Below are positions 3,327 to 61,743 of a stretch of DNA of 64,000 nucleotides, one piece after another. The stretch comes from an uncultured Bacteroidaceae bacterium (lineage in GTDB: Bacteria; Bacteroidota; Bacteroidia; Bacteroidales; GCA-2748055): positions 5,044 to 69,043 of the forward strand of contig CAYOSB010000002.1 in the NCBI GenBank assembly GCA_964406495.1. Direction: 5' to 3'. Numbering within the stretch: position 1 is the first letter of the stretch; every line of letters begins with the position of its first letter. A program made the position numbers and the translations under genes. The notes beneath the pieces are model-generated. The model was not told the DNA's origin and searched no databases. It saw nothing but the letters and a program-made list of their open reading frames with translations.

Positions 3327-4469
3327 ATGAACATGAAAAAGATCATTTCCATCTTGCTGTTGATCGTCGTTTTTACCATCGTCAGCACCAGCCAGTCCGC
3401 AATGCAGCCAGAGGAGGAATTGGCAAACAAGTACCAGGAACCTGTTAAGATTGGTGTGGCAGGGTTGTCACACTCGCACGTGGTTCCGCTCCTCAGGAAC
3501 CTTGAGCGCACTGATATTCAGATTGTCGGCATTGCTGAACCTGACCGGGACCTTGCGCAGCGATACGCGGAGCGGTTCGGGTTTGACATGTCAATGGTAT
3601 ACGATTCACTGGAAAAGATGCTCGATGCAACCCAACCTGAAGGGGTACTCACCTTCACTTCCATCTACGATCATTTAAAGGTAGTTGAGACCTGTGCGCC
3701 CCGGGGGATCCACGTGATGGTGGAAAAGCCGCTTGCCGTTTCCGTTGCCCACGCGGAACAGATCTCCGCGCTTGCTGATCAACACGATATCATGGTCCTG
3801 ACCAACTACGAAACATCATGGTATCCTTCGGTGCACCTGGGAAAGAAAATGATCAACGACGGCGACCTGGGTGTGTTGAGAAAGGTCATCGTTTACGATG
3901 GTCACTCCGGACCGAAGGAAATAGGCGTGAACCAGGAATTTCTCGACTGGCTCACAGATCCCGTGCTCAATGGCGGGGGAGCAGTGATGGACTTTGGCTG
4001 CTACGGGGCGGATCTGATCACCTGGATACTTGAAGGAGAAAAACCTTTGAGTGTTTCTGCAAGTCTGAAGCAGTATAAACCTGGGGTATATCCCAAAGTG
4101 GACGATGATGCCACCATCATTTTATCCTACCCGGATATGGAAGGGGTGATCCATGCATCCTGGAACTGGCCCTTCAGCCGGAAGGATATGCACATCTATG
4201 GCTCCACCGGCTATGTATTTCAGGATGATCCGGAAACGATCAGGTACCGCCTGGAGCGAAAATCAAAAGAACAGGTAAAAAAAGTCGCAGCAACAACAAT
4301 TCCTTATAACGATCCATTTACCTGGTTTTCAGATATAATCCGCGGTAAAGCAACCGTTCAACCGACAGGCCTGGCATCATTAGAGATCAACAAGATCGTC
4401 GTTGAGATTCTTGAGGCAGCAAAAGAAAGCAGTAAAACAGGTGAGAAAGTGTATCTCAACCTGCAATAA
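3327..4469 (+). CDS. Secreted Gfo/Idh/MocA-family NAD(P) oxidoreductase
   Basis: The ORF track begins at 3237, but the ATG at 3327 gives a clean signal peptide, MNMKKIISILLLIVVFTIVSTSQS. A Rossmann start KIGVAGLSHSHV and the motif MVEKPLA are typical of the GFO/IDH/MocA family. Confidence 0.85.
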   Translation: MNMKKIISILLLIVVFTIVSTSQSAMQPEEELANKYQEPVKIGVAGLSHSHVVPLLRNLERTDIQIVGIAEPDRDLAQRYAERFGFDMSMVYDSLEKMLDATQPEGVLTFTSIYDHLKVVETCAPRGIHVMVEKPLAVSVAHAEQISALADQHDIMVLTNYETSWYPSVHLGKKMINDGDLGVLRKVIVYDGHSGPKEIGVNQEFLDWLTDPVLNGGGAVMDFGCYGADLITWILEGEKPLSVSASLKQYKPGVYPKVDDDATIILSYPDMEGVIHASWNWPFSRKDMHIYGSTGYVFQDDPETIRYRLERKSKEQVKKVAATTIPYNDPFTWFSDIIRGKATVQPTGLASLEINKIVVEILEAAKESSKTGEKVYLNLQ

Positions 4470-29619: not shown

Positions 29620-30990
29620 CTACAAGCGGTAATACGCTTCCCAGCCGTTGCGTGGTTCATGGCCTTCAAGCAGCTTGTTCGCTTTCCGGTTGTTGGTGAT
29701 TTTCTTTCGCGAGGTATCAAATTTAAGTTTACCTCCCAGTCTTTGAGCGATACAACCCAGCATGAATACCTGGGTGAGTGGAGCTGCTACTGCAAATGAA
29801 GAATTACAATAGGGATCTTTACCCGAAGCGGCACGCAGGAAGTTCTCCATGTGGTCCTTGGACGTTTCACTTTCGGGCAGCTCGGGCAATTTGTTCTTCA
29901 TCTCCTCCATTTTTTCAATTGGAATGATCTGGTGCATATCTCCGTGTGTTCCCCCGACAATCGTCAGATCATCACTGTAAATTATTTTACCTGTCCTGGG
30001 GACTTCCATCTCTTCCGGCATTTCTTCCGGACGATCTGGTCTGTTATCTACACCATCATACCAGTTAATGGTCATGGCCGGCATGCCCGGGCCCCGCTCT
30101 GCAAAATCGAACGCGATCGTAGTAGCCAACGGGTAAATGTAATCATTCTGACCTATAAGTGTTTCGGCCCGAATCTCATGGGGAAGTCCGAGTTCCAGGT
30201 AACGATGAATGGAATCGAGCGTGTGTGGTCCCCAGTCACCAAATGCTCCGTTCCCATAGTCGTACCAACCACGCCAGTTTCCTGGATCATACTTTTCATT
30301 GTAGGGGTGTTTGGGGGCCGTGGCTGCCCATACGTCCCAGTTCATTCCTTCCGGCATGGGCTGTTCCGGAGGAAACCCCTGCACATCACCCCAGGGGTGC
30401 CAGCGCCGCCCTTTGTTCATACTGGCATCTACCTTCCGCACATTTTTTATAATCCCTGCATCCACCCATGACTTGAACTGAAGACGCTGGTTGGTGGAAT
30501 GCCCCTGGTTGCCCATCTGGCACATCACCTTATATTTTTTTTCAGCCTCCATCAGTAATTCGCACTCTTCAAAGGTATGGGCCAGGGGCTTCTCCACGTA
30601 TACATGCTTACCGAGCGACATGGCAAGCATGGTGATGGGAAAATGCGAATGATCCGGGGTACCAATGATACAAGCATCTATCTCATTGGACATGGCATCG
30701 AACATTTTCCGGAAATCATCAAACACCCTTGCCTTGGGATACAACGCTTTCAACTCATCGGTACGTGACGGGACAACATCACAAAGTGCTACACAGTTGG
30801 CCAGTCCTGTTCGCATGGCCCATTGTCCAATTTTACCTGCACGATGGGCACAGCCAATAATCGCGATGTTTAATTTGTCGGATGCTGCAATTCTGCCAAG
30901 TGCCACACCAGGCATTGTACTGAATGTTGTAGCCGCCAGGGCAGCAGCTGAATTTTTGAGAAATACGCGTCTTTTCATGTTTTTTGTCAT
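29620..30990 (-). CDS. Tat-exported Gfo/Idh/MocA oxidoreductase (GH109-like architecture)
   Basis: 456 aa. Twin-arginine motif MKRRVFLKNSAAALAA. Motifs NIAIIGCAHRAG and YVEKPLAHT. The size and Tat signal resemble NAD-dependent GH109-type enzymes. Confidence 0.85.
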   Translation of the reverse strand: MTKNMKRRVFLKNSAAALAATTFSTMPGVALGRIAASDKLNIAIIGCAHRAGKIGQWAMRTGLANCVALCDVVPSRTDELKALYPKARVFDDFRKMFDAMSNEIDACIIGTPDHSHFPITMLAMSLGKHVYVEKPLAHTFEECELLMEAEKKYKVMCQMGNQGHSTNQRLQFKSWVDAGIIKNVRKVDASMNKGRRWHPWGDVQGFPPEQPMPEGMNWDVWAATAPKHPYNEKYDPGNWRGWYDYGNGAFGDWGPHTLDSIHRYLELGLPHEIRAETLIGQNDYIYPLATTIAFDFAERGPGMPAMTINWYDGVDNRPDRPEEMPEEMEVPRTGKIIYSDDLTIVGGTHGDMHQIIPIEKMEEMKNKLPELPESETSKDHMENFLRAASGKDPYCNSSFAVAAPLTQVFMLGCIAQRLGGKLKFDTSRKKITNNRKANKLLEGHEPRNGWEAYYRL

Positions 30991-32979: not shown

Positions 32980-33273
32980 TTAGCAGCACATTAAAAGATT
33001 CTTAATTCGGCAAAAATAAGCTGTGTAGATTTCATATTTAATCGAAGGATGTCCCCTGACATATTCTTTCTCCGTGATCCAGTTAAGGTGATCCATATTG
33101 GGTGTCTGGAATTCTGCATCTGCATTCAGGTAGCTCGCATCGCCAAATCCCTGGTCATCGTTATAAATGATAATGATGTTGGGATTGCCTGGAGGTGTTT
33201 TTTCGCTGCACCCGAAGAATATGGTGGGTGCAATAATTTACATTATATTAAATATCATTCGATTGTGAATCAT
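32980..33273 (-). pseudogene. Decayed sulfatase N-terminal remnant
   Basis: My own minus-strand translation gives MIHNRMIFNIM-stop(33238-33240)-IIAPTIFFGCSEKTPPGNPNIIIIYNDDQGFGDASYLNADAEFQTPNMDHLNWITEKEYV..., then unrelated sequence and a stop at 32980. It is homologous to the N-terminus of the 56658-58253 sulfatase (PNIIVIYTDDQGFGDMSLLNPDAKFETPNLDRM). It has an in-frame stop in the signal peptide and no C-x-P-x-R motif or catalytic core. Confidence 0.6.
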
Positions 33274-39467: not shown

Positions 39468-39562
39468 TCTTCTTTTCAGTATCTGTTTTTAATTTAAATC
39501 ACATTGTTTAAATAAATGGGGCGCATGCCTGCGGGATGTCACCAGCATCCCGTCACGGCGCA

Positions 39563-40594: not shown

Positions 40595-40635
40595 TTATTT
40601 GTTAACCAATCTTTTTTTTTATGGATCCCAGGCAT

Positions 40636-42273
40636 TTAGCTAAAAATGGAGTACAAGACAATAAGCGTCACAACGAGTACTCCTGCCCAAACCCTGGGAT
40701 CCCGGGCTCCCATGAATTCATCACGTGCCAGGACTGCAAGCGGACTGTCCCAGGTGTAATTTTTTATCACCTCCGGGGAGGGTTTTTGCGTCAACCTGCT
40801 TGTGATGAAATATATTACCGTACACAACACAAATAACCACCATGCCTGCATCATGAACGGGATTCCCAGTCCGTTGGTAAGATACATGTACCCACTGATC
40901 GGTTCAAAATCCAGGCAGAAGGCTGCAATCCCCAGCACCAGGCCGGAAAGTAGCGTAATAAATGCAGCCTGCGATGTCCCTCTGCGTGAGAATACACCAA
41001 ACAGGAATACAACTGCAACAGGGGGCGCAATTGCAGAAGCGATTTTATTAATTGCCTCAAAAATACTTGAAAACTTGCCGCCCTGGGTCGACCAGGCCAT
41101 CGCCAACAGCATCACCGCAACAGCAGCGTATCTTCCAATGCGTATTTGTCGTTTATCGGATATTCCCGGCTGAATACGTTTTACAATGTCAACGGCCACC
41201 AAGGTTGCTGAGCTGTTCAATGCTGCAGCAATGGTACTCATTAAAGCTGCAAGCAGCGTAGCTGCCATCAAACCCTTCAATCCTACCGGTAACAATTCAC
41301 TGATCATCACCGGCAAGGCCATATTGGCATCGGTACCAATAATATCTTTGAACAGAACGTAAGCGATCACCCCCGGAAAAACCAGGATAAATACCGGCAG
41401 TATTTTCAAAAAGCCTGCCAGTACAGGACCCAATTGCGCATCTCGTTTCGACTTTGCCCCCAGGACCCGCTGGACAATCGTCTGGTCTGAGCACCAGTAC
41501 CAGAGTCCCAGGACAGGATAACCCAGCAGGCAGGCATACCAGGTCAGGCCTGTATCTCCCCCCAGGACCTCCAGGCTTTCCCTGGTATGCATTATTTTGA
41601 GTTGTCCAGGTTTCAGATTTGCTTTCAACTCGGCTATTGTATTGATTCCGTTATCCGACAAAGCAAATACAGCAAAACCTGTAAGTAAAATTGCTCCTAA
41701 TATCAGGATCACAGATTGTACGGTTTCGGTAACGACGACCGCCTTTAAACCTCCCAACACAGTATAAATCGTGGTGATGACAGAAATAACCAGGATCGAA
41801 GTCAGAACATTTATCCCAAAGAAGGTTTTAAAGACTACAGCACCCGCGTATAAGCTCATCCCGATATGTACAAACAGCGCACCGATAATGGCAATAAACG
41901 CCATCAGCGTCCGGGAGCGCGAATCATACCTTTTTTCCAGGAATTCGGGGAGCGTTGAAATCCTGCTCTTGAAGTAGAAGGGAGCAAAAATGAGGCCCAG
42001 CATGATCAAAGTAACCGCTGCCAGCCATTCAAAATTCCCCCAGACCAGCCCTTCATTGTACCCGGAGGCTGCCAGCCCCACCAGGTGGATGGTTGAAATA
42101 TTTGAAGCGAAAAGTGCTGCACCAACCAACAACCAGTTGAGTCCTCTTCCGGCCAGGAAGTAGCCTTCACTGGTCATCCGTTTGAATTTCACTGACAGGA
42201 TCCCGATGACAAGTATACCCAACAGGTAAATGACAATGATCGTCGAATCGATAATATGTATGCCTTGACTCAT
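40636..42273 (-). CDS. Sodium:solute symporter (SSS/SGLT family)
   Basis: 545 aa, polytopic and hydrophobic throughout. The N-terminal YFLAGRGLNWLLVGAALFASNIST is typical of SSS transporters. Confidence 0.9.
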   Translation of the reverse strand: MSQGIHIIDSTIIVIYLLGILVIGILSVKFKRMTSEGYFLAGRGLNWLLVGAALFASNISTIHLVGLAASGYNEGLVWGNFEWLAAVTLIMLGLIFAPFYFKSRISTLPEFLEKRYDSRSRTLMAFIAIIGALFVHIGMSLYAGAVVFKTFFGINVLTSILVISVITTIYTVLGGLKAVVVTETVQSVILILGAILLTGFAVFALSDNGINTIAELKANLKPGQLKIMHTRESLEVLGGDTGLTWYACLLGYPVLGLWYWCSDQTIVQRVLGAKSKRDAQLGPVLAGFLKILPVFILVFPGVIAYVLFKDIIGTDANMALPVMISELLPVGLKGLMAATLLAALMSTIAAALNSSATLVAVDIVKRIQPGISDKRQIRIGRYAAVAVMLLAMAWSTQGGKFSSIFEAINKIASAIAPPVAVVFLFGVFSRRGTSQAAFITLLSGLVLGIAAFCLDFEPISGYMYLTNGLGIPFMMQAWWLFVLCTVIYFITSRLTQKPSPEVIKNYTWDSPLAVLARDEFMGARDPRVWAGVLVVTLIVLYSIFS

Positions 42274-45673: not shown

Positions 45674-47854
45674 TCACCCTGCTTTGGCTATTTTTATATC
45701 CTCAGCCACCCATTCAGTGATTTTCACCCAATCGACATATCCAACCCTGTTGGTCCACAAAGGATTGACATTTTGCTGAAGTGCATTATCAACATATATT
45801 TTCCAGGCTTCTAATGCATTTTCCAGATCTGAAATTGCTGCTTCCTGGTAAGTCTTGTCTTTTGTCTCTCTGAAAAGCGCCAGGTTCGTGGAACCGGAGA
45901 TCTTATAAGCATAGTAATTACCCAGTGAAGCCATTGTTCTTATATCCTGCAAAGTGTATTTTAATTCCTGGTTATCTTCCGGATTCATCGTTTCAATTAT
46001 ACGGAGCGCTTTCTGAGCGCGCTCGCTTAACATCTCTGATACTTCGAAAGGAGATTTTAGATCTGTGGTATTACCTTTAATCTTCATTGTGACAAATTCC
46101 GGTATAGACTGAAAGCCTGCTTTTTTGTGTGTTCCGAGACTAATGAAGCGGTTGACATCGTGAAAACCAGTCTTATTTCGCGCATAACCAGCCCTGCTTT
46201 TGCATCCTTCGATGTACCATTGAAAATCGAGTGGTCCCCAATGAAAGCCTGTCGTAATCGGATAGATCATTGAAGCTTCCTGCCATGCTGTAAATAATTT
46301 TTGTGCCTCGACTTCAGGGTAACGAAATTGTAATAATTGAATGAACCGTTCATTTGAAAGTTCGGGATTATACCCCAGTCTGCCCCAGATCATCCAATGG
46401 TACCAGTGTTTGACCACCTCCAACTGGCGCGGTTCCATTGCCTCCTTCATTAGAAACTCTCGGCCCCATACCCATTGGTCAGAACCATAGTAAAAACCTC
46501 GTGAAACATCATAAGGAATATTTTGAATAAACTCCCTTACAAAATCAGGCGCACCCCAGCGGAAATAGTAATTATCATCATTTCGCAGGGTCCAGATAGT
46601 TTTCATGCCCTGGATCTCCTCGACAAATCCATGATGGTATGGTTGTTCAGTGGCGCTCATCACATGCGCCTTTGCATATTTAAAACTAAAAATGAATTCA
46701 ATGTTGTTGTGCTGGACCAGGGGGGCGAATTTTTCAGCAATATCGAGTGCTCCGGTCTGGTGCTGCCGGTGGATGAATGTGAATTTCCTGTCCGGCATTT
46801 CGGCTGCGGCATCAAGTAAACCCATGGCATAGGTATCAAAGGCCCAGTCTTCCTTTTCCTCTACACTGGATCCTTTCATATTCTCACCAGTAGTGAGCCC
46901 GATCCCTGCCAGGTCGGGATAGGTCAGGAACATCTGCTTTACACTTTTTCGAAAATAATCGCGTGTTACCGGATTATCAATATCATCGGTGATACCGTTT
47001 TTTCCTTCTGTACCATTCATAAAAATATTCCACGTAATAACATAAAAATCAACATTGCGCTCTTTTCCATATTGCATCACCTTCTGCCAGAAACTAATTT
47101 TTTCATCGATACTCATCTTTATCAAAGTTTCCGTATTGCCCAGAATTTCAGGAGCATCATATCCGGTTCCACTCAGATTATAATGTTCTTTCCAGTCAAC
47201 GGTAGAACGTTTCACATCACTGAGCGCAATCTCCTCGTAACCCGGCACTTTGACAAGCGAAGGGAACGGATGTAGGCTCCATAGTGAAATGAAATTGAAG
47301 CGGTATCGCGCCATTTGGTCGATGTATGCTTTCCAGAAATCAAAACTCCACATCTCAGGAATGTTCTTCTGGGCAGCATCACACGCGTCGGTATAGCTCG
47401 GGGTGCGCACATCCAGTGGGATATTAAATTTGGTGCCCCGCATCTTCATATAAGGATCCTGGGATTGGTTGGTGACATCGTCAAAGCCGAATATCCGGAT
47501 CTGTTCGGCAAGTTCCAATCCTCCGTACATTGCGCCCGCGTCATCTGTGGCTGTTATAATAATATTATCCTTCTCCCTGGCAATGGTAAATCCTTCGGCT
47601 TCGATCGATTCCAGCCCTGGTTGAACAGAAATAATAATATCCGCCTGTTGTACATCGTCTACAATTAACTTAATTCCCCGTTCAGAAAAAGAAGATTTGA
47701 TTTCCTGCAAGGCAAATTCAATTTGTGGACTGTCAGTATACGCACCAGCAGAAATTACAATGTGTCCCGCCTGCTTATCGCAACCTGTGATTAACAGAAG
47801 TACAATACCGATATGTGATAAAAGCTTAATAAACCAAGGAATTCCTGTTCTCAT
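45674..47854 (-). CDS. Uncharacterised glycoside-hydrolase-like lipoprotein (GH20b/GH67N-like N-domain plus putative TIM barrel); paralog of 53653-56508
   Basis: 726 aa. Lipoprotein signal LLITGCDK. The block [20 protein letters not shown]...[66 protein letters not shown] is shared with the 951 aa paralog. I could not place it in a named CAZy family. Confidence 0.75.
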
Positions 47855-48001: not shown

Positions 48002-48691
48002 TTATAATCTCAATATCTTTACATTCCTGTACCACACCTCGTAGCCATGATTTTGTAAATCGATATGGCCAAAGGGCGATTTTCCAAAGAAGGGATTATT
48101 TTTCCATTTTGAGTCGGCAACCTGCTGCTCCCAATCCTCCGAATACATCTGGCATTGCATCACGATCACGCCATTGACCCAGTGGGTCACCAGGTTATTG
48201 GAAATCCTTATTCTGCCTGAATTCCATTCCATGGCAGGATTCACAACCTTGTCCTCTGATGTGGGATATACATCGTAAAGGGAACCTGTGGATGTTTTAT
48301 CGAATACACCCGGGTCGTCAAAAACCTGGTATTCTGGTCCTGTAATATAGGGCCTTCTCCACTGAACTCCTTCCCGGGTTCTGTAAATAACTCCACTGTT
48401 TCCTTTTTCTTCGATTTTCCATTCGAATTTCAGATCAAAATCGGCAAAAGCCTCAACCGTCATCAGGTCATCTCCACCTTTTTTACCATCGCAGTAGATC
48501 GCATTTTCCTTTACGGTCCAGGACTTCGGAGCGTCTCCGTTATAGGCCTTCCATCCATCCAGGGTCTCACCGTTAAACAGGTTAATCCATCCCGTGGCAA
48601 ACTCCTCCGGAGTCAGAGTATTCTCTTTTTCCTGGGAAAAAACAGTTAAGTGAAAAACCAAGAATGCTGAGATCATCAGTATGTGCTTCAT
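48002..48691 (-). CDS. Secreted DUF1080 (3-keto-disaccharide-hydrolase-like, concanavalin-fold) protein
   Basis: 229 aa with a signal peptide. Motifs WINLFNGETLDGWKAY, WTVKENAIYC, NSGVIYR, EYQVFDD, and HIDLQNHGYEVWYRNVKILRL at the C-terminus. Confidence 0.85.
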   Translation of the reverse strand: MKHILMISAFLVFHLTVFSQEKENTLTPEEFATGWINLFNGETLDGWKAYNGDAPKSWTVKENAIYCDGKKGGDDLMTVEAFADFDLKFEWKIEEKGNSGVIYRTREGVQWRRPYITGPEYQVFDDPGVFDKTSTGSLYDVYPTSEDKVVNPAMEWNSGRIRISNNLVTHWVNGVIVMQCQMYSEDWEQQVADSKWKNNPFFGKSPFGHIDLQNHGYEVWYRNVKILRL

Positions 48692-48729
48692 AAGTATAAA
48701 TTTTAGTTGATTTGAATATGATTTTAAGT

Positions 48730-50187
48730 TCAGAACGACCAGCCGTTATGATATGTATGCTTGATCCATTCGTTGCTCATTTCCAGTGCGTTTTGCTCTA
48801 CCCATGACTGTGCCTGGCGCTCCACTTTCCTGGTAACAATATCGCTTGAGAATGGGGACAACTTCGCTGTCCTGATCGTCTCGGATGCGCCAATATTGCT
48901 GACTTTCATGTTTTCGCTGTCCCATTCCAGGGTTTTTTGAAGCGATTGCAACCTGACAGCCAGGTTGCCCATGACCACCATTTCATTGAACGGACCGGCA
49001 TATCCAAAGTTAGATGATGGTACTCCATCATTCTTACAGCACTCCACGAAGTTCATTTCATGTCTTCCTCCACCCAGCGGATGATCCGGGATCCTGCCAA
49101 GATCCACTTTGGTCTGCGGCATAAACGCTTCCCCGTTCCTGTAGGTTTTCCAGTTAGCTCCATAGCTTTCCGCGATCAGTGTACCTTCGGTTCCTATGAA
49201 CATAAACCCTCCTCCCGGCTTCATCGGGGCATCATTTGGCAGGTCATAGGGACGCGGAGGCATCAAACCTCCATCATACCAGGTGAGTTCCAGCTCCGGA
49301 AGTGCCTGGTAAGGCAGGTTCTTTCGTGCAGGAAACTTATAACTTACTTTGGAAGCTACCGGGGCGCTTTCAGTATTTACAAGCGAAGAACTGGCCTGGA
49401 AAGCGAAAGGGTGTCCCAGTTGAAGTGCGAAATTCGGAACATCGAGCAGGTGACATCCCATGTCACCCAGGGCACCCGTTCCAAAATCCCACCAGCCACG
49501 CCATATCCAGGGGTGGTATTCAGGATTATATCCACGCATTTCTGCCGGACCAATAAACAAATCCCAGTCCAGTGTTCGCGGAATTCTCACTACTTTATCA
49601 GGCTTTGGCATGCCCTGTCTCCAGATGGGCCTGTTCGTCCAAACATGTGCTTCCCGGATCACACCCAGGCAACCACTCTGAACAACTTCTGCAACTTCAT
49701 ACACCGTATCACTGGAGTGTCCTTCATTCCCCATCTGGGTAACCACACCCGCTTTTTTCGCCAGATCTGTAAGATACCGGGATTCCCACACAGAATGTGT
49801 CAGGGGTTTTTGAAGATAAACATGTTTTCCGAGTTCCATTGCTGCAGCTGCTGAAAGCGCATGCGTGTGATCAGGAGTAGCAATCACCACCGCATCAATG
49901 TCCTTCTGCTCATCGAACATTTTCCGAAAGTCCTGGTATTTTTTTGCATCAGGATACGTTTCGAACACCGGCTTCGCATAATCAAAGTCTACATCGCATA
50001 ATGCTACAATGTTCTGCCCGACCATGTTTCTCAGGTTCACCTTTCCTTTTCCTCCCACACCTATTCCTGCTATATTCAGCCGGTCACTTGGAGGAGTATG
50101 ACCAAGTCCGGAAACCGCAAAACTTGGAACAACAGTCAGGGCGAGTCCGCTTGCAGTGGCGTTTTTAATAAAATCTCTTCGTTGCAT
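48730..50187 (-). CDS. Tat-exported Gfo/Idh/MocA oxidoreductase (GH109-like architecture)
   Basis: Start moved to the Met at 50187, giving the Tat motif MQRRDFIKNATASGLALTVVPSFA. Motifs NIAGIGVGGKGKVNL and YLQKPLTHS. The gene is 38 bp upstream of the DUF1080 gene on the same strand. Confidence 0.9.
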   Translation of the reverse strand: MQRRDFIKNATASGLALTVVPSFAVSGLGHTPPSDRLNIAGIGVGGKGKVNLRNMVGQNIVALCDVDFDYAKPVFETYPDAKKYQDFRKMFDEQKDIDAVVIATPDHTHALSAAAAMELGKHVYLQKPLTHSVWESRYLTDLAKKAGVVTQMGNEGHSSDTVYEVAEVVQSGCLGVIREAHVWTNRPIWRQGMPKPDKVVRIPRTLDWDLFIGPAEMRGYNPEYHPWIWRGWWDFGTGALGDMGCHLLDVPNFALQLGHPFAFQASSSLVNTESAPVASKVSYKFPARKNLPYQALPELELTWYDGGLMPPRPYDLPNDAPMKPGGGFMFIGTEGTLIAESYGANWKTYRNGEAFMPQTKVDLGRIPDHPLGGGRHEMNFVECCKNDGVPSSNFGYAGPFNEMVVMGNLAVRLQSLQKTLEWDSENMKVSNIGASETIRTAKLSPFSSDIVTRKVERQAQSWVEQNALEMSNEWIKHTYHNGWSF

Positions 50188-50481
50188 ATGAATTGGTTTT
50201 AGTTGGTTGTTGGTTGATTGCCTCTCACAAATATAAATTAACATGAAAACGATTAAGAAAAAATTAATTCTGGATAAATATCCATGCAGGTAAACCAATA
50301 AATCAATAAAAATAAATCAATAATTATTACGGGACTTATAATTGAAACAATGGCAAATCAAATCAAAACTCAACGCTTAATCCAATAATTGACACCTGAA
50401 TTCCTGCCTGTTAAGCATAATTTAATCCTTTTTTATATCCCTGAATCTATCTTTAATCAAGATTTAAATACAAATAACACT

Positions 50482-52806
50482 ATGAATACGTTAATTAATA
50501 GACTTTCTGTACTGTTGTTGTTAGCATTGGTCCTTGCTAACGGTTGTGAACAGGATCAACCTGAGAAAAAACAGCCTGTGGACTATGTGAACCCATTTAT
50601 CGGAACCATGGGCTCAGGCGAGCGAAAAAGTACAGATGGCAGGACCCATCCGGGTGCCTGCGTTCCTTTTGGCATGACCAAATGGATCCCTGCAAATATT
50701 GATGGTCCCAGCGATCCATACAAGTATGTGGAAGGAAGCAGACGAATGCGTCTATATCCGGAAATTATAAAAGAAGAAATATTCGGATTCAGGGGATCAC
50801 ATTATCCAAATGGTTCACACATGCGTGATTATGGAAGCTATGATTTTATGCCCATTGTTGGTAACCTGAAATTTACCACGGATGAGCGAGTATCAAAAAT
50901 CAGTCATGAGAAAGAATCGGCCTCCCCGGGATACTATTCAGTGTTCCTGGAGGATCATAAAACACTTGCAGAGATAACCGCTACCGAAAGAAGTGGATAT
51001 TTCAGGTTTTCATTTCCCGATACCAACCAGGTCCATATCATCACTGATACACGGATGGGTGATGGTTTTATTCAAATCGTGCCGGAAAAAAACCAGGTCA
51101 TAGGCTACGGAGGCTATTCATTTTTCGGAAGGACCAAAGGATATTTCGTGGCGCAATTCAGCAAAGATTTTTCTTCCTGGGGTACATGGGATCAAGAGGT
51201 TTCGGAAAAGGCAAAAGAAGTAAGTGGTGAACATGTAAAATCATTTGTCAGTTTTGATACCAACGGAGAGGAAACGATCGAAGTTAAAATAGGAACCTCC
51301 TTTATAGATATTGAAACAGCGCTCGCCAACCTGGAAAATGAAATCGGCAGCAAGAAATTCGCAGAAGTCAAAAAAGAAGCCAGGGAAGCATGGAATGAAA
51401 AACTAAGCAGAATTGAAGTTCAGGGTGGAACCGAGGCGGATAAAATCAAATTCTATACATCACTCTACCTGGTCCATTTCGAACCCAGGATTTCTTCCAG
51501 TGGCGGGCGATACTACAGTGTTTTTGATGAAACAATTCATGAGACCGGGGAAGGATCTGAATTCTACAATGATTTCTCCCTGTGGGATACCTATCGCAAT
51601 AAACATGCGCTCATGACCCTTCTTGAACCAAAGATTGAAGGCGATATGATGCAATCCCTCGTTAATATGTATAAACAAGGCGGATGGATTCCCAAATGGC
51701 CGAACCCTGGATATTCGAGTGTGATGATCGGGGCGCCGGCAACACCGGTTTTTGCTGATGCCTATTTGAAAGGAATCCGGAACTTTGACATAGAAACTGC
51801 TTATGAAGGTTTAGTAAAGAATCATACTGTTAAGCCTGATCCCAATGAGTTTAAGAACGGGATGAGATACAGGGGTATGGACGGAGTTGAAGACTATATG
51901 AAATATGGCTATGTTCCCTTTGATCTCCACAGCAGTTCTGCATCCAAGACTGTTGAAGCAGCATTTGCAGATTGGGCGTTGGCTCAACTGGCAAAAGAGT
52001 TGGGGAAGGAAGATGATTACGAATACTATCTTAAGAGATCCGGTAACTATAAGAACCTGATCGATACTGAGACAGGATATCTCAGGGCAAAAGACACTAA
52101 AGGAAACTGGATAGCGCCTTTCGATCCCATCTCAGAAGATGATTACCTGAACAATGGGCTGGATTGGAGACCCAGGGAAAACTACCCTTATATTACCGAA
52201 GGTACCCCCTTGCACTGGACCTGGCATGTAATGCATGATCCCCGGGGATTGATTCAACTGCTCGGGGGAAAAGAAAAGTTTACCGAGAAACTGGAGTTTT
52301 CCTTAATAAAAGGCGAACCTTACAATTTCGGCGAATGGAACCCATGGTTCAATCAATCTAATCAACCCGTAATGCATGCCGTGTATTTATTCAATGATGC
52401 GGGTGCGCCATGGAAAACACAGAAATGGATCAGGACCATCATGGAGAAATCCTATGGAACAGGACCCGACGGCATGGTCGGGAACGATGATGTCGGGACG
52501 ATGTCGGCATGGTATGTATTCAGCGCGATGGGCTTTTACCCGGTCGCCCCTGGAGAGCTAAAATACTCCATGGGAAGCCCGGTTTTTGATAAAATCATCA
52601 TTCACCTGCCGGAGTATCTCTATGGGGGGAAGGATTTCACGATCATTGCTGAAAACAATTCCCCGGAAAATAAATATATCCAGTCTGCAACTATCAACGG
52701 GGATTCGCTTAACAAGCCATGGATTGACCATACGACCATTAAAGAAGGCAGCACCCTTACACTGCAAATGGGAAACAACCCCAATAAGAATTGGGGGAAC
52801 AGGTAA
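50482..52806 (+). CDS. GH92 glycoside hydrolase (alpha-mannosidase family), more canonical type
   Basis: The track ORF starts at a TTG at 50389. The ATG at 50482 gives signal MNTLINRLSVLLLLALVLANGC. Motifs VDYVNPFIGT, HPGACVPFGM, FYTSLYLVHF and GNDDVGTMSAWYVFSAMGFYPVAPG. Confidence 0.9.
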   Translation: MNTLINRLSVLLLLALVLANGCEQDQPEKKQPVDYVNPFIGTMGSGERKSTDGRTHPGACVPFGMTKWIPANIDGPSDPYKYVEGSRRMRLYPEIIKEEIFGFRGSHYPNGSHMRDYGSYDFMPIVGNLKFTTDERVSKISHEKESASPGYYSVFLEDHKTLAEITATERSGYFRFSFPDTNQVHIITDTRMGDGFIQIVPEKNQVIGYGGYSFFGRTKGYFVAQFSKDFSSWGTWDQEVSEKAKEVSGEHVKSFVSFDTNGEETIEVKIGTSFIDIETALANLENEIGSKKFAEVKKEAREAWNEKLSRIEVQGGTEADKIKFYTSLYLVHFEPRISSSGGRYYSVFDETIHETGEGSEFYNDFSLWDTYRNKHALMTLLEPKIEGDMMQSLVNMYKQGGWIPKWPNPGYSSVMIGAPATPVFADAYLKGIRNFDIETAYEGLVKNHTVKPDPNEFKNGMRYRGMDGVEDYMKYGYVPFDLHSSSASKTVEAAFADWALAQLAKELGKEDDYEYYLKRSGNYKNLIDTETGYLRAKDTKGNWIAPFDPISEDDYLNNGLDWRPRENYPYITEGTPLHWTWHVMHDPRGLIQLLGGKEKFTEKLEFSLIKGEPYNFGEWNPWFNQSNQPVMHAVYLFNDAGAPWKTQKWIRTIMEKSYGTGPDGMVGNDDVGTMSAWYVFSAMGFYPVAPGELKYSMGSPVFDKIIIHLPEYLYGGKDFTIIAENNSPENKYIQSATINGDSLNKPWIDHTTIKEGSTLTLQMGNNPNKNWGNR

Positions 52807-52883: not shown

Positions 52884-53522
52884 TTAATCGAGCTCTTTGA
52901 TCCGTATGTTCCGGAAACTGTATACCTGGCCATCCTCTCCATGGTGCTGCAGGGCAATGTGACCTTTCGCATCCATATCGTCAGTATAATCTGTGCATAA
53001 TACATCGTTAACATAGATGCGCAGCCGGGTGCCTTCTGCATGGATCCGGTATTTATTCCAGCCGTAACGCTTAAATGATCCTTCTGTCTTTTCGCGGAAT
53101 GCATCTCCTGAAGGGGAATCATTGGGTTTCTGCGGATATAACCAGCCACGGCGTCCCTCATCGTAAAGTCCGCCCGACCAGGCACGGTCAGAAGCATCGA
53201 CTTCCGCCTGGTAGCCCCATACTTTGTTAGGCTTCACATGGCACCTGAACATAAATCCCGAATTGGATTTACCTTCCGGCAATTTGACCTCTCCCTCAAA
53301 GATAAAGTCAGAATAAGTATCCTCAGTAACGAGAAAGAACTTTTTGTCGGCAACCAGGTGAATTTCACCATCCACCACTTCCGCTTCTCCCCAGTCATAA
53401 GGATTCATCCATCCATTGAGAGTTGATCCGTCGAAAAGATCCACCCATCCCGCTCCACTTTCCCGTGGGGATGAAAAATTAAAAGCTGAAAGAACAAGAA
53501 TTGTTAAGACTAATGTTTTCAT
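52884..53522 (-). CDS. Secreted DUF1080 (3-keto-disaccharide-hydrolase-like) protein
   Basis: Start at the Met at 53522 (MKTLVLTILVLSAFNF). Motifs WVDLFDGSTLNGW, NSGFMFR, GYQAEVD and HIALQHHGEDGQVYSFRNIRIKEL. Confidence 0.85.
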   Translation of the reverse strand: MKTLVLTILVLSAFNFSSPRESGAGWVDLFDGSTLNGWMNPYDWGEAEVVDGEIHLVADKKFFLVTEDTYSDFIFEGEVKLPEGKSNSGFMFRCHVKPNKVWGYQAEVDASDRAWSGGLYDEGRRGWLYPQKPNDSPSGDAFREKTEGSFKRYGWNKYRIHAEGTRLRIYVNDVLCTDYTDDMDAKGHIALQHHGEDGQVYSFRNIRIKELD

Positions 53523-53652: not shown

Positions 53653-56508
53653 CTACAGACGCCAGGGCTCCAGTTCCTCGCTTTTCCAAACGATTTCCCT
53701 TTTGCCTCCTGCATCTTCGCGAACTATCACCAGGCTTCTCCCGGCAGTAATCCCCAGCAAATAAGTACCCAGCTTTTCAATCTCCGGGGTTGTATAGGGT
53801 GTTGCTTCCACATTGCCGGGGGTACCACGATAGATCACCAGCTGTCCCCTTTCAAGGGCTACAAAATGCGGTGCACCATGGTCATTATGCATCATTGCTT
53901 TCCAAAGCATGCCCCTGGTATTTTCCGGGGAGCCATCATACAGGATCAGGCGGCCGTCATCCCGCAACCGGATAAAACACTCCAACCGGGGAAATTCAAA
54001 GACATCTTCATCGGTAAATATATCTCCCTCTTCGAGGATAACCTGGTGGATTTCATCCTGCCAGTCCATCGCCCGGTCTTCTGAAACAGATCCAATTGTA
54101 ATTTGGATCTCCCGTTTACCGATGGTCCCGGTATGGTCCTCAGCAACTGCCATGAGCTCATACACTCCCGGTGCCAGCCCTTTCAGTAATGGATCGCTTG
54201 CCTCGCTCCATGTCATTGGCTTTCCCCTGTGCGGCTTTAATTTCAGACCGTTGAAGTACAGCATAATTTCCCTGATACCATCTGCGTCCTCGGCCACCAA
54301 CTCTGCCCGCAGGTCGGTTCCTGCCGGCAATTCAATACCATCTGACAGGTTAGTAAAATGCACTTCGGGGGCATCTCCCTCCCGCCTGACGGTCTCAACC
54401 TCTTGCTCTACTTCTGATAAAATGCTTTCCCAATCCATATAACTGGTTCTTTGCATCAATTGAGACCTGTATTGCGATGAAACTATCGCTGTATATGCTT
54501 TCCATTCATCAACTGCATCTTCCAGGTGTGCAACGGCATCATCACTGAATTGTTTTTGCTGTGTGGTGACCCGAAACGCTGCCAGTTTGGCCGCACCACG
54601 CATTTTATCTGCATAATAGCGCCCCAGGTAAGCCATCGCCTCAATGTCATTTAACGTTTCGGTCAATTCTGCCTGTTCTGCAGCCTGTGCCCGCAAGTCC
54701 GGAATGAGTGCGAGTGCTCTTGCCGCATAAGTATCCAGTTGATCCGCTACCTGAAAGGGTGTGATTCCAGGTAACTGATCACCGTTCACAATGGCCTCTC
54801 CCCATTCCTGCACGGAGTGAATGCCAGATCCGATCATCGGCCAGAATGAAAAATTGTAGTCATCGATAGTAAGGAATCCTCTCCTGTCAATACATCCTTC
54901 AGGTGCAAGGTGTGCATCATTGGGACAGAAGGTGGCATTGTTGACCAGGGGTATAATTTCACCTGTGGCTGCCCAGGCATCATAAAGTTTCCCGGGATCA
55001 ATACCCGGAAACCGATACCGCAGGTTCGCCTCCCAGTAATCCCGTCCAAGATTTGGATCATACGCAAGCTCTCCCCACATGCGGAAACGGTACCAGTGTT
55101 TATCGATCTCCAGTTTTCCGGATGTTTCCGGGTTTTTGGAAATAAATTCACGTCCCCAAACATATCCGTCTGACCCCATATAAAATCCTGCCATCACATC
55201 ATGCGGCATCAATTGGATATAATCCCGCACATAATCCGGATTACCCCAGCGCAACACAAACATGTCATCGTTTCGCAGGTTGAGCCAGCTGCGAACCCAG
55301 TACTTCTCCACATCATCCCGAAACCAGCGGTCAAACAACTGTGGATGTCGGCCGGTATACATATGCCCGATCGCATATTTAAAACTGGTTTCAAATTTAT
55401 CGGGAAAATCCTCAAATGCAGTTGTTATGGGTCCCAGTCCTGTCATATGCCGGCGAAAAATGAACCGGACATTCCGCTCTGGTTGCTGTTCAAGTACATC
55501 CATGATGCCCCGTCCATAGGTGTTGAAGAGAAAATTTTCGATCGAGTACTGGCCCGCAATATGATTATCCGCATTTTCTCCAGCAGTGACCCCAATACCG
55601 GCGATCTGGGGATAGGTCTTCAGGGCCTCACGGACACATTCCCTCATGTAATCATTTGTAACAGGGTTGGTCTGGTCAGGGGTAATACCGTGTTTACCGG
55701 TCGCACCAAAGGTCATGACATTCCAATGAAACAGGTAGATCTCAATCCCGCGATCCCCTGCATATTCAAATACCATTTGCCAGTATTTGATCTTATCTTC
55801 GATCGGGATCTTTTTGACCAATTCAATTGTTCCTGGTTTTTCGAGGTCCACATCCTGCAACCTGTTTTTGTGTTCTGATTTGAATACACCTTCGCTGACA
55901 CGGTAAACATCATCAAGGGCTACTTCGGGAAAATCGTCCAGTTGGATGATGGAAGGGTAAGGATGTGTGCTCCAAAGGCTCAACACATTATAGCGGTAGC
56001 GTGCCAGGTCATCTAAATAGGCCTTCCAGAACTCAATATCCCAGACCGTTTCGATATTGTTCTGGGCATTGTCGCCAGTGTCATCGTATGAAGGGGTCCG
56101 GGCATCCCATGGAATATTGAATTTCATACCTCGTTTTCTTACAAAAGGCTCTTTTTTAACGTTTTCCACCGGTAATCCCAATCTGATCCGCTCAGCCAGT
56201 TCAATTCCACCGTACATTGCCCCATTTGCATCCGACCCGGTAATTTCAATGATCCCAGGTTGTACTAACAGGATTTCAAATGCTTCGGGCGAATCCCTGT
56301 CATGGCTGACGGACAGTGTTACATGGAGCGTTTGCTGTCCGGCTTCTGCAAGTGCACGTTCCAATTCGCCGGCAGCAAACGCCACCTGTGGAATACTTGC
56401 ATCATATTCAACCTGGGCAATGATATGATAAGGCACCAGGATTCCTGAAAAAAGCACCGAGAACAAAAAATATATTGATTTCTTCATCATAGGGTAGGTA
56501 TTTCCCAT
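53653..56508 (-). CDS. Uncharacterised GH-like protein (paralog of 45674-47854) with C-terminal Ig-like and bulb-lectin-like modules
   Basis: 951 aa.
- N-terminal and core blocks: NGAMYGGIELAERIRLG, RKRGMKFNIPWDARTPSYDDTGDNAQNNIETVWDIEFWKAYLDDLARYRYNVLSLWSTHPYPSII.
- C-terminal 114 aa: three repeats of the type CFIRLRDDGRLILYDG / HFVALERGQLVIYRG / YLLGITAGRSLVIVRED.
- The start may be 56490 (MMKKSIYF). Confidence 0.75.
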   Translation of the reverse strand: MGNTYPMMKKSIYFLFSVLFSGILVPYHIIAQVEYDASIPQVAFAAGELERALAEAGQQTLHVTLSVSHDRDSPEAFEILLVQPGIIEITGSDANGAMYGGIELAERIRLGLPVENVKKEPFVRKRGMKFNIPWDARTPSYDDTGDNAQNNIETVWDIEFWKAYLDDLARYRYNVLSLWSTHPYPSIIQLDDFPEVALDDVYRVSEGVFKSEHKNRLQDVDLEKPGTIELVKKIPIEDKIKYWQMVFEYAGDRGIEIYLFHWNVMTFGATGKHGITPDQTNPVTNDYMRECVREALKTYPQIAGIGVTAGENADNHIAGQYSIENFLFNTYGRGIMDVLEQQPERNVRFIFRRHMTGLGPITTAFEDFPDKFETSFKYAIGHMYTGRHPQLFDRWFRDDVEKYWVRSWLNLRNDDMFVLRWGNPDYVRDYIQLMPHDVMAGFYMGSDGYVWGREFISKNPETSGKLEIDKHWYRFRMWGELAYDPNLGRDYWEANLRYRFPGIDPGKLYDAWAATGEIIPLVNNATFCPNDAHLAPEGCIDRRGFLTIDDYNFSFWPMIGSGIHSVQEWGEAIVNGDQLPGITPFQVADQLDTYAARALALIPDLRAQAAEQAELTETLNDIEAMAYLGRYYADKMRGAAKLAAFRVTTQQKQFSDDAVAHLEDAVDEWKAYTAIVSSQYRSQLMQRTSYMDWESILSEVEQEVETVRREGDAPEVHFTNLSDGIELPAGTDLRAELVAEDADGIREIMLYFNGLKLKPHRGKPMTWSEASDPLLKGLAPGVYELMAVAEDHTGTIGKREIQITIGSVSEDRAMDWQDEIHQVILEEGDIFTDEDVFEFPRLECFIRLRDDGRLILYDGSPENTRGMLWKAMMHNDHGAPHFVALERGQLVIYRGTPGNVEATPYTTPEIEKLGTYLLGITAGRSLVIVREDAGGKREIVWKSEELEPWRL

Positions 56509-60249: not shown

Positions 60250-61743
60250 TTACATAAATTCTTTGATGTAGATATCCTTAAAGCGGATCTTTAATTCACT
60301 TTTCGCGTGCAACTGGAGCGCAATGCGTCCTTTCATACCGACATTGTATAGTTGATGCGCCTGGTTGTCCAGGATCCCTGTAAAATCTTCGTCACATACG
60401 ATCAAACCATTCAATATGGTGATCATCCTGGTTCCCTGGCAGATGATCTTCATCTCATTCCACCCATCACCGTCCTCCGCATACTTAAATACGACCTCTT
60501 CGGGCCCCTGTTCTCTTTTTATTGCAGACCCCGGAGACGGTGGACAGATCCAGCCGCGGGCCTTCCTGGTCTCATCATAGATGAGTCCTGTCCGCCATGG
60601 TGCCGGGGGATGTATGTCGACCTGCGGGCCATCCAGCCATCCACCGCGCGGGGCACTTTCTGAGCGGTCATACCTGCTGCGCACCTGTACCCCGCTATTG
60701 CCTTTGCTCTCCCTGAATGCCTGTAACTTAAGCTGAAGCTCGAAGTCAGCATATTCCTTATCAGTGCATAACCAGATGTAATCATGATCCTGAGAACCGA
60801 TGGAATTGCATTCAATGGTTCCATCCTTCACCCGCCAGAAATTCCTGTCCCTGTCCTTATCGACGGAAGCGACATGCCATCCTTCGAGTGAGGTTCCGTT
60901 AAAAAGCGACAGCTTTTTATTTACGGATGGATCACCCTTGAGAAAAGCTTTCAGTTTGGGAGCGAAATTTCCGTTCAAATCTCCAGTGGCCAGTACATAG
61001 GCCATTCCCCCATCAGATGCATCAAGGCCGTTTTCCTTGTGCTTCGCTGTGGCGCGGAACCTGGAATATAACCACCTGTATTCTTCACGATCGGCGGTCT
61101 TCATCCACTCCACCTGGTCCCAGCCGTCATATGCCCTGCCACCAAACTTGGTTCTTCCCTGCCCTGTAGTATAAAAGTATGTTGCGCCCAGGGCAACGCA
61201 ATCATCTTTTCCATGCGAAGGAGAACCATCTTCAAGCTTCCACTTATCAGCCCGCTCATTGATCTCAGCATGTGATACCAGGATGCAATATTTCCGCTTT
61301 TCAGGATCCGCCCGTAATATTGCCTGGTAAGCCACCTCAAATGGTCCTGCCTGGACATACCAGAACTTACTGCCCGGGTGACTTTTATTGATTTCTTCCT
61401 TTGCATGTTCAATGGCAGCCTCCAACGCTCGTTGATCGTCGAAAAAGACCGCTTCATTAAAATTAAACCTCTTCGCGCCGCCAATCGTGCTTTCATAATT
61501 CTCGGCTTCCTTCCATTCCAGGCTGTTGTCCAGCCTGTTGTTGTAATCAAAATGAACCAGCTTATCGTGCCATCCCATTTTATCAAATATGGCAAGTGCC
61601 AGTGCAGTGGCACTCCAGTCATCGGGATCATGCATGTTGCCATCCGCACTCCAGCCGATACGGTCATTTTCACCCGGAAGTTGGGCGATGATCTCATTCA
61701 ACCCTGAGATGATAATTACCAGGACCAATAACATTGTCCGCAT
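60250..61743 (-). CDS. Secreted fusion protein: unknown N-terminal domain (possible nucleoside-hydrolase-like fold) plus C-terminal DUF1080 domain
   Basis: Start at the Met at 61743 (MRTMLLVLVIIISGLNEIIAQ). The N-terminal half contains HDPDDWSATALALAI, which is reminiscent of a DxDDxxA nucleoside-hydrolase-like motif; this link is weak. The C-terminal half has LSLFNGTSLEGWHV, WRVKDGTIEC, NSGVQVRSRY, GPQVDIHP and RIALQLHAKSELKIRFKDIYIKE. Confidence 0.8.
   Translation of the reverse strand: MRTMLLVLVIIISGLNEIIAQLPGENDRIGWSADGNMHDPDDWSATALALAIFDKMGWHDKLVHFDYNNRLDNSLEWKEAENYESTIGGAKRFNFNEAVFFDDQRALEAAIEHAKEEINKSHPGSKFWYVQAGPFEVAYQAILRADPEKRKYCILVSHAEINERADKWKLEDGSPSHGKDDCVALGATYFYTTGQGRTKFGGRAYDGWDQVEWMKTADREEYRWLYSRFRATAKHKENGLDASDGGMAYVLATGDLNGNFAPKLKAFLKGDPSVNKKLSLFNGTSLEGWHVASVDKDRDRNFWRVKDGTIECNSIGSQDHDYIWLCTDKEYADFELQLKLQAFRESKGNSGVQVRSRYDRSESAPRGGWLDGPQVDIHPPAPWRTGLIYDETRKARGWICPPSPGSAIKREQGPEEVVFKYAEDGDGWNEMKIICQGTRMITILNGLIVCDEDFTGILDNQAHQLYNVGMKGRIALQLHAKSELKIRFKDIYIKEFM

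Follow-up and report, generated by a model that had tools for sequence, protein, structure and literature searches.

The locus considered here raises the question of what is achieved by a gene for an exported oxidoreductase and a gene for a secreted DUF1080 protein, found side by side in a region rich in sulfatase genes. The region is a stretch of 64,000 nucleotides, referred to as the window, from an uncultured Bacteroidaceae bacterium (GenBank assembly GCA_964406495.1, contig CAYOSB010000002.1, positions 5,044 to 69,043). A preliminary description had read the two genes as a periplasmic module which first oxidises and then cleaves a glycan, and which is repeated across the locus. With a probability of roughly 0.7, the pair is predicted, from its sequence relationships, to be a self-sufficient, redox-neutral periplasmic exo-glycosidase, which would act by oxidation, elimination and hydration and not by a Koshland mechanism.

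The published system on which this reading is modelled is encoded by BT2156-BT2160 of Bacteroides thetaiotaomicron and AL1-AL5 of Alistipes, and has been termed an "alternative broad-specificity pathway" (bioRxiv 10.1101/2024.03.25.586180; PMC8121099). Growth on trehalose and other alpha-glucosides depends on BT2157-BT2160, purified BT2157 breaks down 3-keto-trehalose, and BT2158 was proposed to be an enzyme with a bound cofactor, exported by twin-arginine translocation (Tat) (Liu et al. 2021, PMC8121099). According to Nasseri et al. (bioRxiv 10.1101/2024.03.25.586180), BT3 and AL3 oxidise C3 with a tightly bound, non-exchanging nicotinamide adenine dinucleotide (NAD), and BT2157 is both a 3-keto-alpha-glycoside 1,2-lyase and a 2-hydroxy-3-keto-glucal hydratase, BT2 and AL2 preferring the alpha-anomer. 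In the same study, reduced BT3 and AL3 are most likely re-oxidised by the 3-keto sugar product, and BT4, the cytoplasmic oxidoreductase encoded by the fourth gene, can be omitted in vitro. Of the hydroxyls, the characterised homologues need only OH-3 and OH-4, and they accept 6-deoxy and 6-phospho sugars; a system related to the BT/AL pathway also accepts 6-sulfo sugars.

The oxidoreductase and DUF1080 gene pair

Both genes are read from the minus strand. The upstream one lies in an open reading frame (ORF) at 48730-50298, where an internal Met at 50187 opens the sequence MQRRDFIKN and a product of 485 aa; the downstream ORF, at 48002-48691, encodes the DUF1080 protein of 229 aa. Gene calls on an identical public contig (Logan SRR7048225) likewise give 485 and 229 aa. 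No terminator-like hairpin was found on the minus strand of the 38-bp spacer by a promoter and terminator scan, whose counts were at shuffle level and whose coverage does not extend to Bacteroidota promoters. The two genes are probably co-transcribed, and signal peptides put both products outside the cytoplasm.

The oxidoreductase matches PF01408 (1.5e-17), as a Rossmann NAD-binding domain which spans residues 38-153 and contains GIGVGGKG, and PF19051 (2.5e-15). The motif RRDFIK at its N-terminus fits the twin-arginine consensus, and a hydrophobic stretch follows MQRRDFIKN. Nearly the whole protein (residues 2-484) aligns to positions 1-482 of the 487 of NCBIfam model NF058561, the BT_2158 family of glycoside 3-dehydrogenases, with a score of 647.5 bits. 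The best structural counterpart is PDB 8TDF/8TDH (E 1e-139, 49.8% identity), which is the AL3 of Nasseri et al.; after a single, uniform shift in numbering, the six residues named by these authors each coincide with the expected amino acid. These residues, Q161, R192, W195, D248, H252 and Y349, were described as the sugar site from a trehalose-bound structure (bioRxiv 10.1101/2024.03.25.586180); they correspond to E, R, W, D, H and Y in the window protein, five of the six being identical. Assignment to GH109 was rejected: the best match, 6T2B (E 2.6e-5), covers only residues 30-175, that is the Rossmann domain. GH4 membership was rejected as well, no GH4 Pfam family being found in any of the three window oxidoreductases.

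The DUF1080 protein matches PF06439, "3-keto-disaccharide hydrolase", at 6.6e-45 (153.9 bits, against a gathering threshold of 26.8), and carries a Sec-type signal peptide without a lipobox Cys. Its sequence matches in PDB are 4JQT (1e-44), 3U1X (1e-39) and 8TDA, which is BT2157 (2.5e-25). Seven of the eight conserved BT2 channel residues are kept, namely N98, E120, Q122, Y139, K195, Q213 and H215, equivalent to N134, E164, Q166, Y190, K245, Q273 and H275 of BT2; in the alignment they are invariant across 31 homologues of the same short type, down to 35% identity. The AlphaFold model (predicted local distance difference test, pLDDT, 92.7) is a beta-jelly-roll, with template modelling (TM) scores of 0.85 to 3U1X, 0.77 to BT2 (8TDA), 0.76 to AL2 and 0.78-0.80 to 8RR2/9FBE, entries deposited under the name "3-keto-glycoside eliminase/hydratase"; the chain of 9FBE shows an H-to-N substitution. 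No NCBIfam model recognises DUF1080 proteins, not even the BT2157-like ones.

By the activities assigned to the BT/AL homologues, one oxidoreductase and one DUF1080 protein should suffice for net hydrolysis of an alpha-glycoside, which agrees with the two-gene architecture. The steps proposed for the window pair are taken from homology and residue conservation. The oxidoreductase would fold around tightly bound NAD+ in the cytoplasm, be exported by Tat, and oxidise the non-reducing-end pyranoside of an oligosaccharide at its 3-OH, giving a 3-ketoglycoside. The secreted DUF1080 protein would then take the acidified H2 and expel the aglycone by 1,2-elimination, and would hydrate the resulting 2-hydroxy-3-keto-glycal to a 3-keto sugar. 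By returning its hydride to this sugar, the reduced oxidoreductase would regenerate NAD+ and release the free monosaccharide.

As the characterised homologues require only OH-3 and OH-4, terminal residues in alpha linkage, probably of manno or gluco configuration, could be removed by the module. Alpha-linked sugars are also the targets of other enzymes of the window, encoded by three GH92 genes, one GH95 gene and two GH138-like genes. To judge from the gene context, residues of this kind which are modified elsewhere, possibly by sulfate at O-6 or O-2, could be attacked only poorly by these GH92, GH95 and GH138-like enzymes.

Much of the preliminary description agrees with these data. Its Tat-signal oxidoreductase 38 bp upstream of a secreted DUF1080 protein, on the same strand, is found again in the ORF listing and in the Pfam matches. 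The idea of oxidation followed by cleavage is upheld by homology to the dissected BT2158/AL3 and BT2157/AL2 system and by the retained key residues, and the remark that Tat export suits a prefolded, cofactor-loaded enzyme agrees with the tightly bound NAD reported for AL3 and BT3. In view of this strong homology to a characterised system, the mechanistic reading is not novel: the mechanism has been known since the work of 2021-2024 in gut Bacteroides and Alistipes, and the pair is a trimmed, subfamily-shifted form of the BT2158/BT2157 pathway.

Conservation of the adjacency

Genomes were scanned with the oxidoreductase of the pair, and 80 loci were obtained, 73 of them with enough downstream sequence. 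In 28 of these 73 the next gene downstream, read from the same strand, encodes a DUF1080 protein. Reciprocally, an oxidoreductase with PF01408 and PF19051 is found directly upstream in 7/8 short-type DUF1080 homologues on long contigs. A metagenome scan with the DUF1080 protein gave 12 loci, mostly too short and supplemented by exact-protein context look-ups; the oxidoreductase is directly upstream in three of the five informative ones. The adjacency, which is much more frequent than chance would allow, is thus conserved in relatives, as the preliminary description had proposed to check.

Spacing is similar in homologous pairs, the extremes being a slight overlap at the start and a gap of about 62 bp. 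The flanking genes vary widely between loci, so that the pair behaves as a portable two-gene unit. The closest relative (L001) shows the order GH92, oxidoreductase, DUF1080 and GH138-like gene of the window, at 90-95% identity.

Relatives of the oxidoreductase fall into four groups in a neighbour-joining tree. One is formed by AL3-like enzymes; the members of another, such as that of locus L071, clear the NF058561 cut-off and are partnered by long, BT2157-like DUF1080 proteins, the L071 pair being also accompanied by a gene for a Tat-signal, IolE-like TIM-barrel protein. The third group consists of solo oxidoreductases beside recR in Draconibacterium, Maribellus and Mariniphaga. The clade of the window enzyme holds essentially all pairs with a short DUF1080 and shares with the recR-adjacent solo clade the replacement of Q161 by E (Q161E). 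The adjacency is conserved in two clades, with two different DUF1080 subtypes.

The solo orthologues have a conserved housekeeping neighbourhood of their own (L021-L045; for example 9977-11458 in L021 and 9992-11461 in L033), with a large glycosyltransferase-like gene adjoining; the 208-aa gene beside them is recR-like as assigned from its N-terminal sequence only. This neighbourhood suggests a constitutive role of the Tat oxidoreductase, independent of an adjacent DUF1080. An extended, four-gene version was also observed (L004, 10001-14260; L095, 7475-11786), composed of an oxidoreductase, a short DUF1080, a second DUF1080 and a second Tat oxidoreductase. In L004 the second DUF1080 is 39% identical and keeps all seven residues; the second Tat oxidoreductase of this version has the site pattern Q K W D H W. 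The L095 version adjoins BNR/sialidase-like genes and a SusC gene.

Sulfatase context and alternative readings

The flanks of the loci of 8 kb or longer were fetched up to about 10 kb on each side and searched for sulfatase genes. At least one is present in 7/15 loci with short-type pairs, against 1/18 with long-type, BT2157-like pairs (Fisher p = 0.012) and 7/39 with solo oxidoreductases (p = 0.043); given a small sample without correction for phylogeny, the association is no more than suggestive. In L094 the pair stands between sulfatases, in the order sulfatase, oxidoreductase, DUF1080, sulfatase, Fn3-like gene and two more sulfatases, with GH29 and GH3 close by. In L096 it follows SusC and SusD, and four sulfatases are found within the next five genes; L099 has the order sulfatase, oxidoreductase, DUF1080, sulfatase and aldo-keto reductase. 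About half of the short-type pairs lie in contexts of other kinds (L098, L100, L101, L003 and L004). No link of DUF1080 or GFO (Gfo/Idh/MocA family) enzymes with sulfatase loci or polysaccharide utilization loci was found in the searchable literature.

Several observations weigh against the exo-glycosidase proposed above. The equivalog cut-off of NF058561 is 750 bits, and the oxidoreductase, with 647.5 bits, stays under it, while the 52%-identical relative of L071, which has the classical partners, passes with 818.8 bits; the window enzyme thus belongs to a sister clade and is not a certified equivalog. The residue changed to E, Q161, is the NAD-proximal one, and the change is common to all 55 members of the clade. 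The DUF1080 protein is merely 30% identical to BT2157 and has lost the loop which bears E103 in BT2. Many orthologues at 74-78% identity, in Draconibacterium, Maribellus and Mariniphaga, are the solo genes beside recR, so the oxidoreductase can work without an adjacent DUF1080. Neither a BT2156-type TIM-barrel beta-lyase nor a BT2159-type cytoplasmic reductase is found in the 64-kb window, and a characterised DUF1080 protein, THTE_1561, is reported to be an endo-xanthanase/lichenase. Some of these points would also suit two proteins which do not form a cleaving couple, one being a periplasmic oxidoreductase for sugars in general, akin to glucose-fructose oxidoreductase or to monosaccharide dehydrogenases, and the other a DUF1080 which is a GH16-like hydrolase or a lectin-like binding protein: the score under the cut-off, the solo orthologues beside housekeeping genes in many Prolixibacteraceae, and THTE_1561 as a precedent for hydrolase activity, to which a resemblance of the DUF1080 fold to CBM66 and GH16 may be added. 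Such an arrangement appears improbable, however, as the match to the Zymomonas glucose-fructose oxidoreductase is weak and limited to the Rossmann domain (E about 1e-7, versus 1e-139 for AL3), five of the six AL3 sugar-site residues are conserved, the DUF1080 subfamily shows no variation in its lyase/hydratase residues, the GH16 motif ExDxxE is reported to be absent from BT2/AL2 (bioRxiv 10.1101/2024.03.25.586180), and the adjacency itself is maintained. A chance juxtaposition in a crowded carbohydrate locus could be imagined, both families being abundant and represented by three GFO-family and three DUF1080 genes in the window, but it is effectively refuted by the conservation data: order, strand and spacing recur in relatives with quite different flanks, at the counts of 28/73 and 7/8, and BT2157-BT2158 and AL2-AL3 are adjacent in the same way.

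Two further readings concern sulfate. The pair may be a version of the published mechanism specialised for sulfated sugars, cutting alpha-linked termini which are still sulfated, for example at O-6 or O-2, and thus skipping prior desulfation; the sulfated monosaccharide set free, or the shortened chain, would be left to the surrounding sulfatases. The enrichment of short-type pairs near sulfatases (7/15, versus 1/18 and 7/39) points in this direction, as do the arrangements in L094, L096 and L099, the tolerance of homologues for 6-phosphate and 6-deoxy sugars and of a related system for 6-sulfo sugars, and the clade-wide Q161E, by which the lineage is set apart. Half of the short-type pairs, on the other hand, lie outside sulfatase contexts, the host lineages are rich in sulfatases anyway, in a small sample uncorrected for kinship, and the sugar-binding residues other than Q161 equal those of AL3, which is active on glucosides and mannosides. 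It is accordingly a tentative and rather doubtful suggestion that the clade of Q161E oxidoreductases with short, 229-aa DUF1080 partners has repeatedly been drawn into polysaccharide loci rich in sulfatases, in Bacteroidota from sediment and marine habitats, where it would cleave terminal alpha-glycosides still sulfated or otherwise modified at positions other than C3 and C4. Much less credence is given to a redox-assisted desulfation, in which oxidation beside a sulfate ester would let the DUF1080 protein eliminate sulfate and not the aglycone. The location among 12 or more sulfatases is all that speaks for it; the family oxidises C3, and H252 and D248, which contact OH-3, are conserved, while hydrolytic S1 sulfatases are already abundant in the locus. 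A 3-ketone activates H2 and H4, so that in an elimination through the conjugate base (E1cB) the leaving group must be on C1, as the aglycone is, or on C5, and sulfate esters at C2, C4 or C6 are wrongly placed for such a loss. On the basis of this established chemistry, loss of sulfate by the window pair is unlikely. The statement of the preliminary description that such a pairing had not been described for sulfated glycans appears to hold for the searchable literature; the pairing itself is already published, and NCBIfam has a glycoside 3-dehydrogenase model. The fresh element appears to be only the recurrent placement of the pair among sulfatase genes.

Other genes of the window and related systems

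The features discussed in the text are listed in Table 1. Recurrence of both families at 3327, 29620, 52884 and 60250, noted in the preliminary description, is confirmed by Pfam. The three copies of each partner which it counted include a single true adjacent pair, the others differing by subfamily or residues; a module repeated three times is ruled out by subfamily placement and by residue loss in the other copies, the DUF1080s at 52884 and 60250 being short of 2-4 of the conserved catalytic residues.

Table 1. Position of the pair, of its neighbours and of the other oxidoreductase and DUF1080 genes in the window
Feature	Position	Strand	Basis or remark
Tat-exported Gfo/Idh/MocA oxidoreductase, predicted glycoside 3-dehydrogenase of the BT2158/AL3 family, 485 aa	48730..50187	-	Pfam, NCBIfam, PDB match
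Intergenic spacer, 38 bp	48692..48729	-	between oxidoreductase and DUF1080 genes
Secreted short-type DUF1080, 229 aa, predicted 3-keto-alpha-glycoside 1,2-lyase and 2-hydroxy-3-keto-glycal hydratase	48002..48691	-	PF06439, PDB, residues, model
Lipoprotein distantly related to GH138 alpha-galacturonidase BPa0997	45674..47854	-	directly downstream of the pair, 147-bp gap
GH92 alpha-mannosidase-family gene	50389..52806	+	upstream of the pair, divergently transcribed; PF07971 6e-169, PF17678
Second Tat oxidoreductase, divergent paralogue, solo	29620..30990	-	NF058561 311 bits; motif KRRVFLK
Sec-secreted Gfo/Idh/MocA oxidoreductase of another subfamily, not of the BT2158 family	3327..4469 (ORF from 3237)	+	PF01408, PF22725
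Orphan secreted DUF1080, divergent subtype	52884..53522	-	PF06439 2.5e-41
Two-domain secreted protein with C-terminal DUF1080	60250..61743 (ORF to 61800)	-	PF06439 at residues 298-513, 9.7e-31

The second Tat oxidoreductase, at 29620, is 34.5% identical to AL3, with the site residues Q K W D H H, and no DUF1080 is adjacent to it in the window nor in any of three homologous contexts (3/3). It belongs to a very large family, mostly from Pirellulaceae, and is 62-67% identical to proteins of many members of this group (Stieleria, Novipirellula, Rubripirellula, Rhodopirellula), which are often mis-named "inositol 2-dehydrogenase". A similarity as high as this is unusual across phyla and would fit horizontal transfer between lineages rich in sulfatases. 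At 3327 the oxidoreductase is of a generic kind within the family: it reaches only 29 bits with NF058561, its best PDB matches are 3V5N and dihydrodiol dehydrogenase (about 1e-16), and the AL3 sugar-site residues are not conserved.

The orphan DUF1080 at 52884 keeps five of the eight channel residues (the equivalents of N, E, Y, Q and H), with D in place of Q166 and no equivalent of K245; a relative with 61% identity sits just upstream of an oxidoreductase in L010. In the protein at 60250, the equivalents of N134, Q273 and H275 alone are kept (3/8), and homologues of its DUF1080 domain are fused to Kelch, beta-lactamase, GH43, ThuA, methyltransferase and other domains; the domain looks more like an accessory binding module. 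The N-terminal part of the same protein (60928-61683, minus strand) is a conserved domain of about 250 aa without a Pfam match, in which the motifs DRIGWSxDGNxxDxDDWxAT, FWYVQAGPFEVAY, KRxYCxLVSHS and LDASDGGMA...TGDxxGNF are invariant. It occurs mostly as a stand-alone secreted protein of about 280 aa, one being found in Pontiella sulfatireligans, and is also fused to sulfatase, ThuA, GH28/pectate-lyase, alginate-lyase or DUF1080 domains. Its model (pLDDT 88.8) is closest to nucleoside hydrolases, at a weak level (TM 0.46-0.56, E about 1e-3).

Of PF00884 sulfatase genes the window holds 12 that are complete, incomplete ones at its two edges and an 85-aa fragment. A T9SS (type IX secretion system) sorting domain is also present and, together with the closest relatives, assigns the source to Prolixibacteraceae-like Bacteroidota. 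The fragment (32983-33237, minus strand) is a sulfatase N-terminus (PNIIIIYNDDQGFGDASYLN...) lying between the sulfatase gene at 31159-32781 and a 329-aa ORF at 33308-34297, which has only weak GH5, DUF4434 and apiosidase-like matches; it is probably a pseudogene remnant. Three PQQ-like or BamB-like beta-propellers (18504-21233, 22920-25592 and 25715-26938, minus strand) stand consecutively, or nearly so, among the sulfatases, one of them with a weak match to the lambda-carrageenase beta-propeller family PF25292 (2.8e-11).

The GH92 gene next to the pair is called as 774 aa on the identical public contig. The two GH138-like paralogues, at 45674-47854 (726 aa) and 53653-56508 (951 aa), both on the minus strand, are large, secreted and almost without Pfam signal. 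Their relation to GH138 is seen with PDB 6HZE (E 3e-18, N-terminal region only) and with NF049878 at about 100 bits (102 for the gene at 45674), the cut-off of this model being 1300 bits; they may represent a divergent or new glycosidase family. A tight block of genes on the minus strand (38295-42273) encodes a sodium/solute symporter, a Zn-dependent dehydrogenase and an aldo-keto reductase. Short-type DUF1080 genes of L097 and L099 likewise have an aldo-keto reductase gene close by, and the enzyme could replace a BT2159-type reductase by drawing off the released (keto-)sugars in the cytoplasm. A complete operon of the BT2156-BT2160 kind was rejected for the window, where the TIM-barrel lyase, the BT2159-type reductase and the regulator are missing: none of the 34 window genes scanned encodes a PF01261 protein, no regulator was seen, and the best window score with NF058563, the BT2159 family, is 30.7 bits against a cut-off of 650.

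With the BT/AL pathway the window pair shares a Tat-exported GFO-family glycoside 3-dehydrogenase beside a secreted DUF1080 lyase/hydratase, both predicted to be periplasmic, the former about 50% identical to AL3 and the latter with the same fold and 7/8 catalytic or metal-site residues. It differs in being reduced to two genes, with no BT2156/AL1 lyase, BT2159/AL4 oxidoreductase or SusR-like regulator nearby, and in lying in a sulfatase/GH92/GH95 locus of a Prolixibacteraceae-like bacterium and not in a gut disaccharide operon. Its DUF1080 is of the short, 229-aa subtype (3U1X/4JQT-like), with a Sec and not a lipoprotein signal and without the E103 loop of BT2157; its oxidoreductase, unlike BT2158/AL3, carries Q161E and scores under the NF058561 cut-off.

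Periplasmic oxidation at C3, followed by a DUF1080-family or analogous enzyme, is also the scheme of LacABC with the DUF1080 protein CCNA_01705 in Caulobacter and Pedobacter, and of ThuAB in Agrobacterium and Sinorhizobium (PMC9007349; PMC8121099). There the oxidant is a membrane-bound, cytochrome-c-linked FAD (flavin adenine dinucleotide) dehydrogenase, or ThuAB, in place of a Tat-exported NAD-bound GFO enzyme, and electrons go to the respiratory chain, whereas in the window pair they would go back to the product. GH4 and GH109 enzymes, the latter with the same GFO Rossmann fold, likewise oxidise C3 transiently, which acidifies H2 and lets the aglycone be eliminated; they perform all steps in one active site and recycle NAD at each turnover, while the window system is split over two proteins. 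A GFO-family 3-oxidase followed by a separate eliminase is found in DgpA with DgpBC and in the OGE system of Agrobacterium (PMC10628242), DgpA matching the window enzyme with an E of 2e-12; the DgpBC/OGE eliminase is, however, a cytoplasmic TIM-barrel, xylose-isomerase-like metalloenzyme acting on aryl C- and O-glucosides. The glucose-fructose oxidoreductase of Zymomonas mobilis resembles the window oxidoreductase as a Tat-exported GFO enzyme with a non-dissociable nicotinamide cofactor and a ping-pong between two sugars, but its reaction is the oxidation of free glucose at C1 with reduction of fructose; glycosides are not cleaved, and a DUF1080 partner is absent.

The 3-keto route is established in gut bacteria on disaccharides, thioglycosides and acarbose. 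The trimmed, two-gene version combines a separate oxidoreductase clade with an uncharacterised DUF1080 subfamily, and is found repeatedly in loci with sulfatases, GH92, GH95 and GH29. If the pair is merely a broad-specificity clean-up glycosidase, the finding amounts to a routine transfer of annotation. If it handles modified alpha-linked residues which resist classical glycosidases, a function would be given to a DUF1080 subfamily known from structural genomics, and an extra step would have to enter the models of sulfated mannan and fucan turnover; cleavage of residues still sulfated, if true, would be a redox bypass of the order "desulfate first, then hydrolyse".

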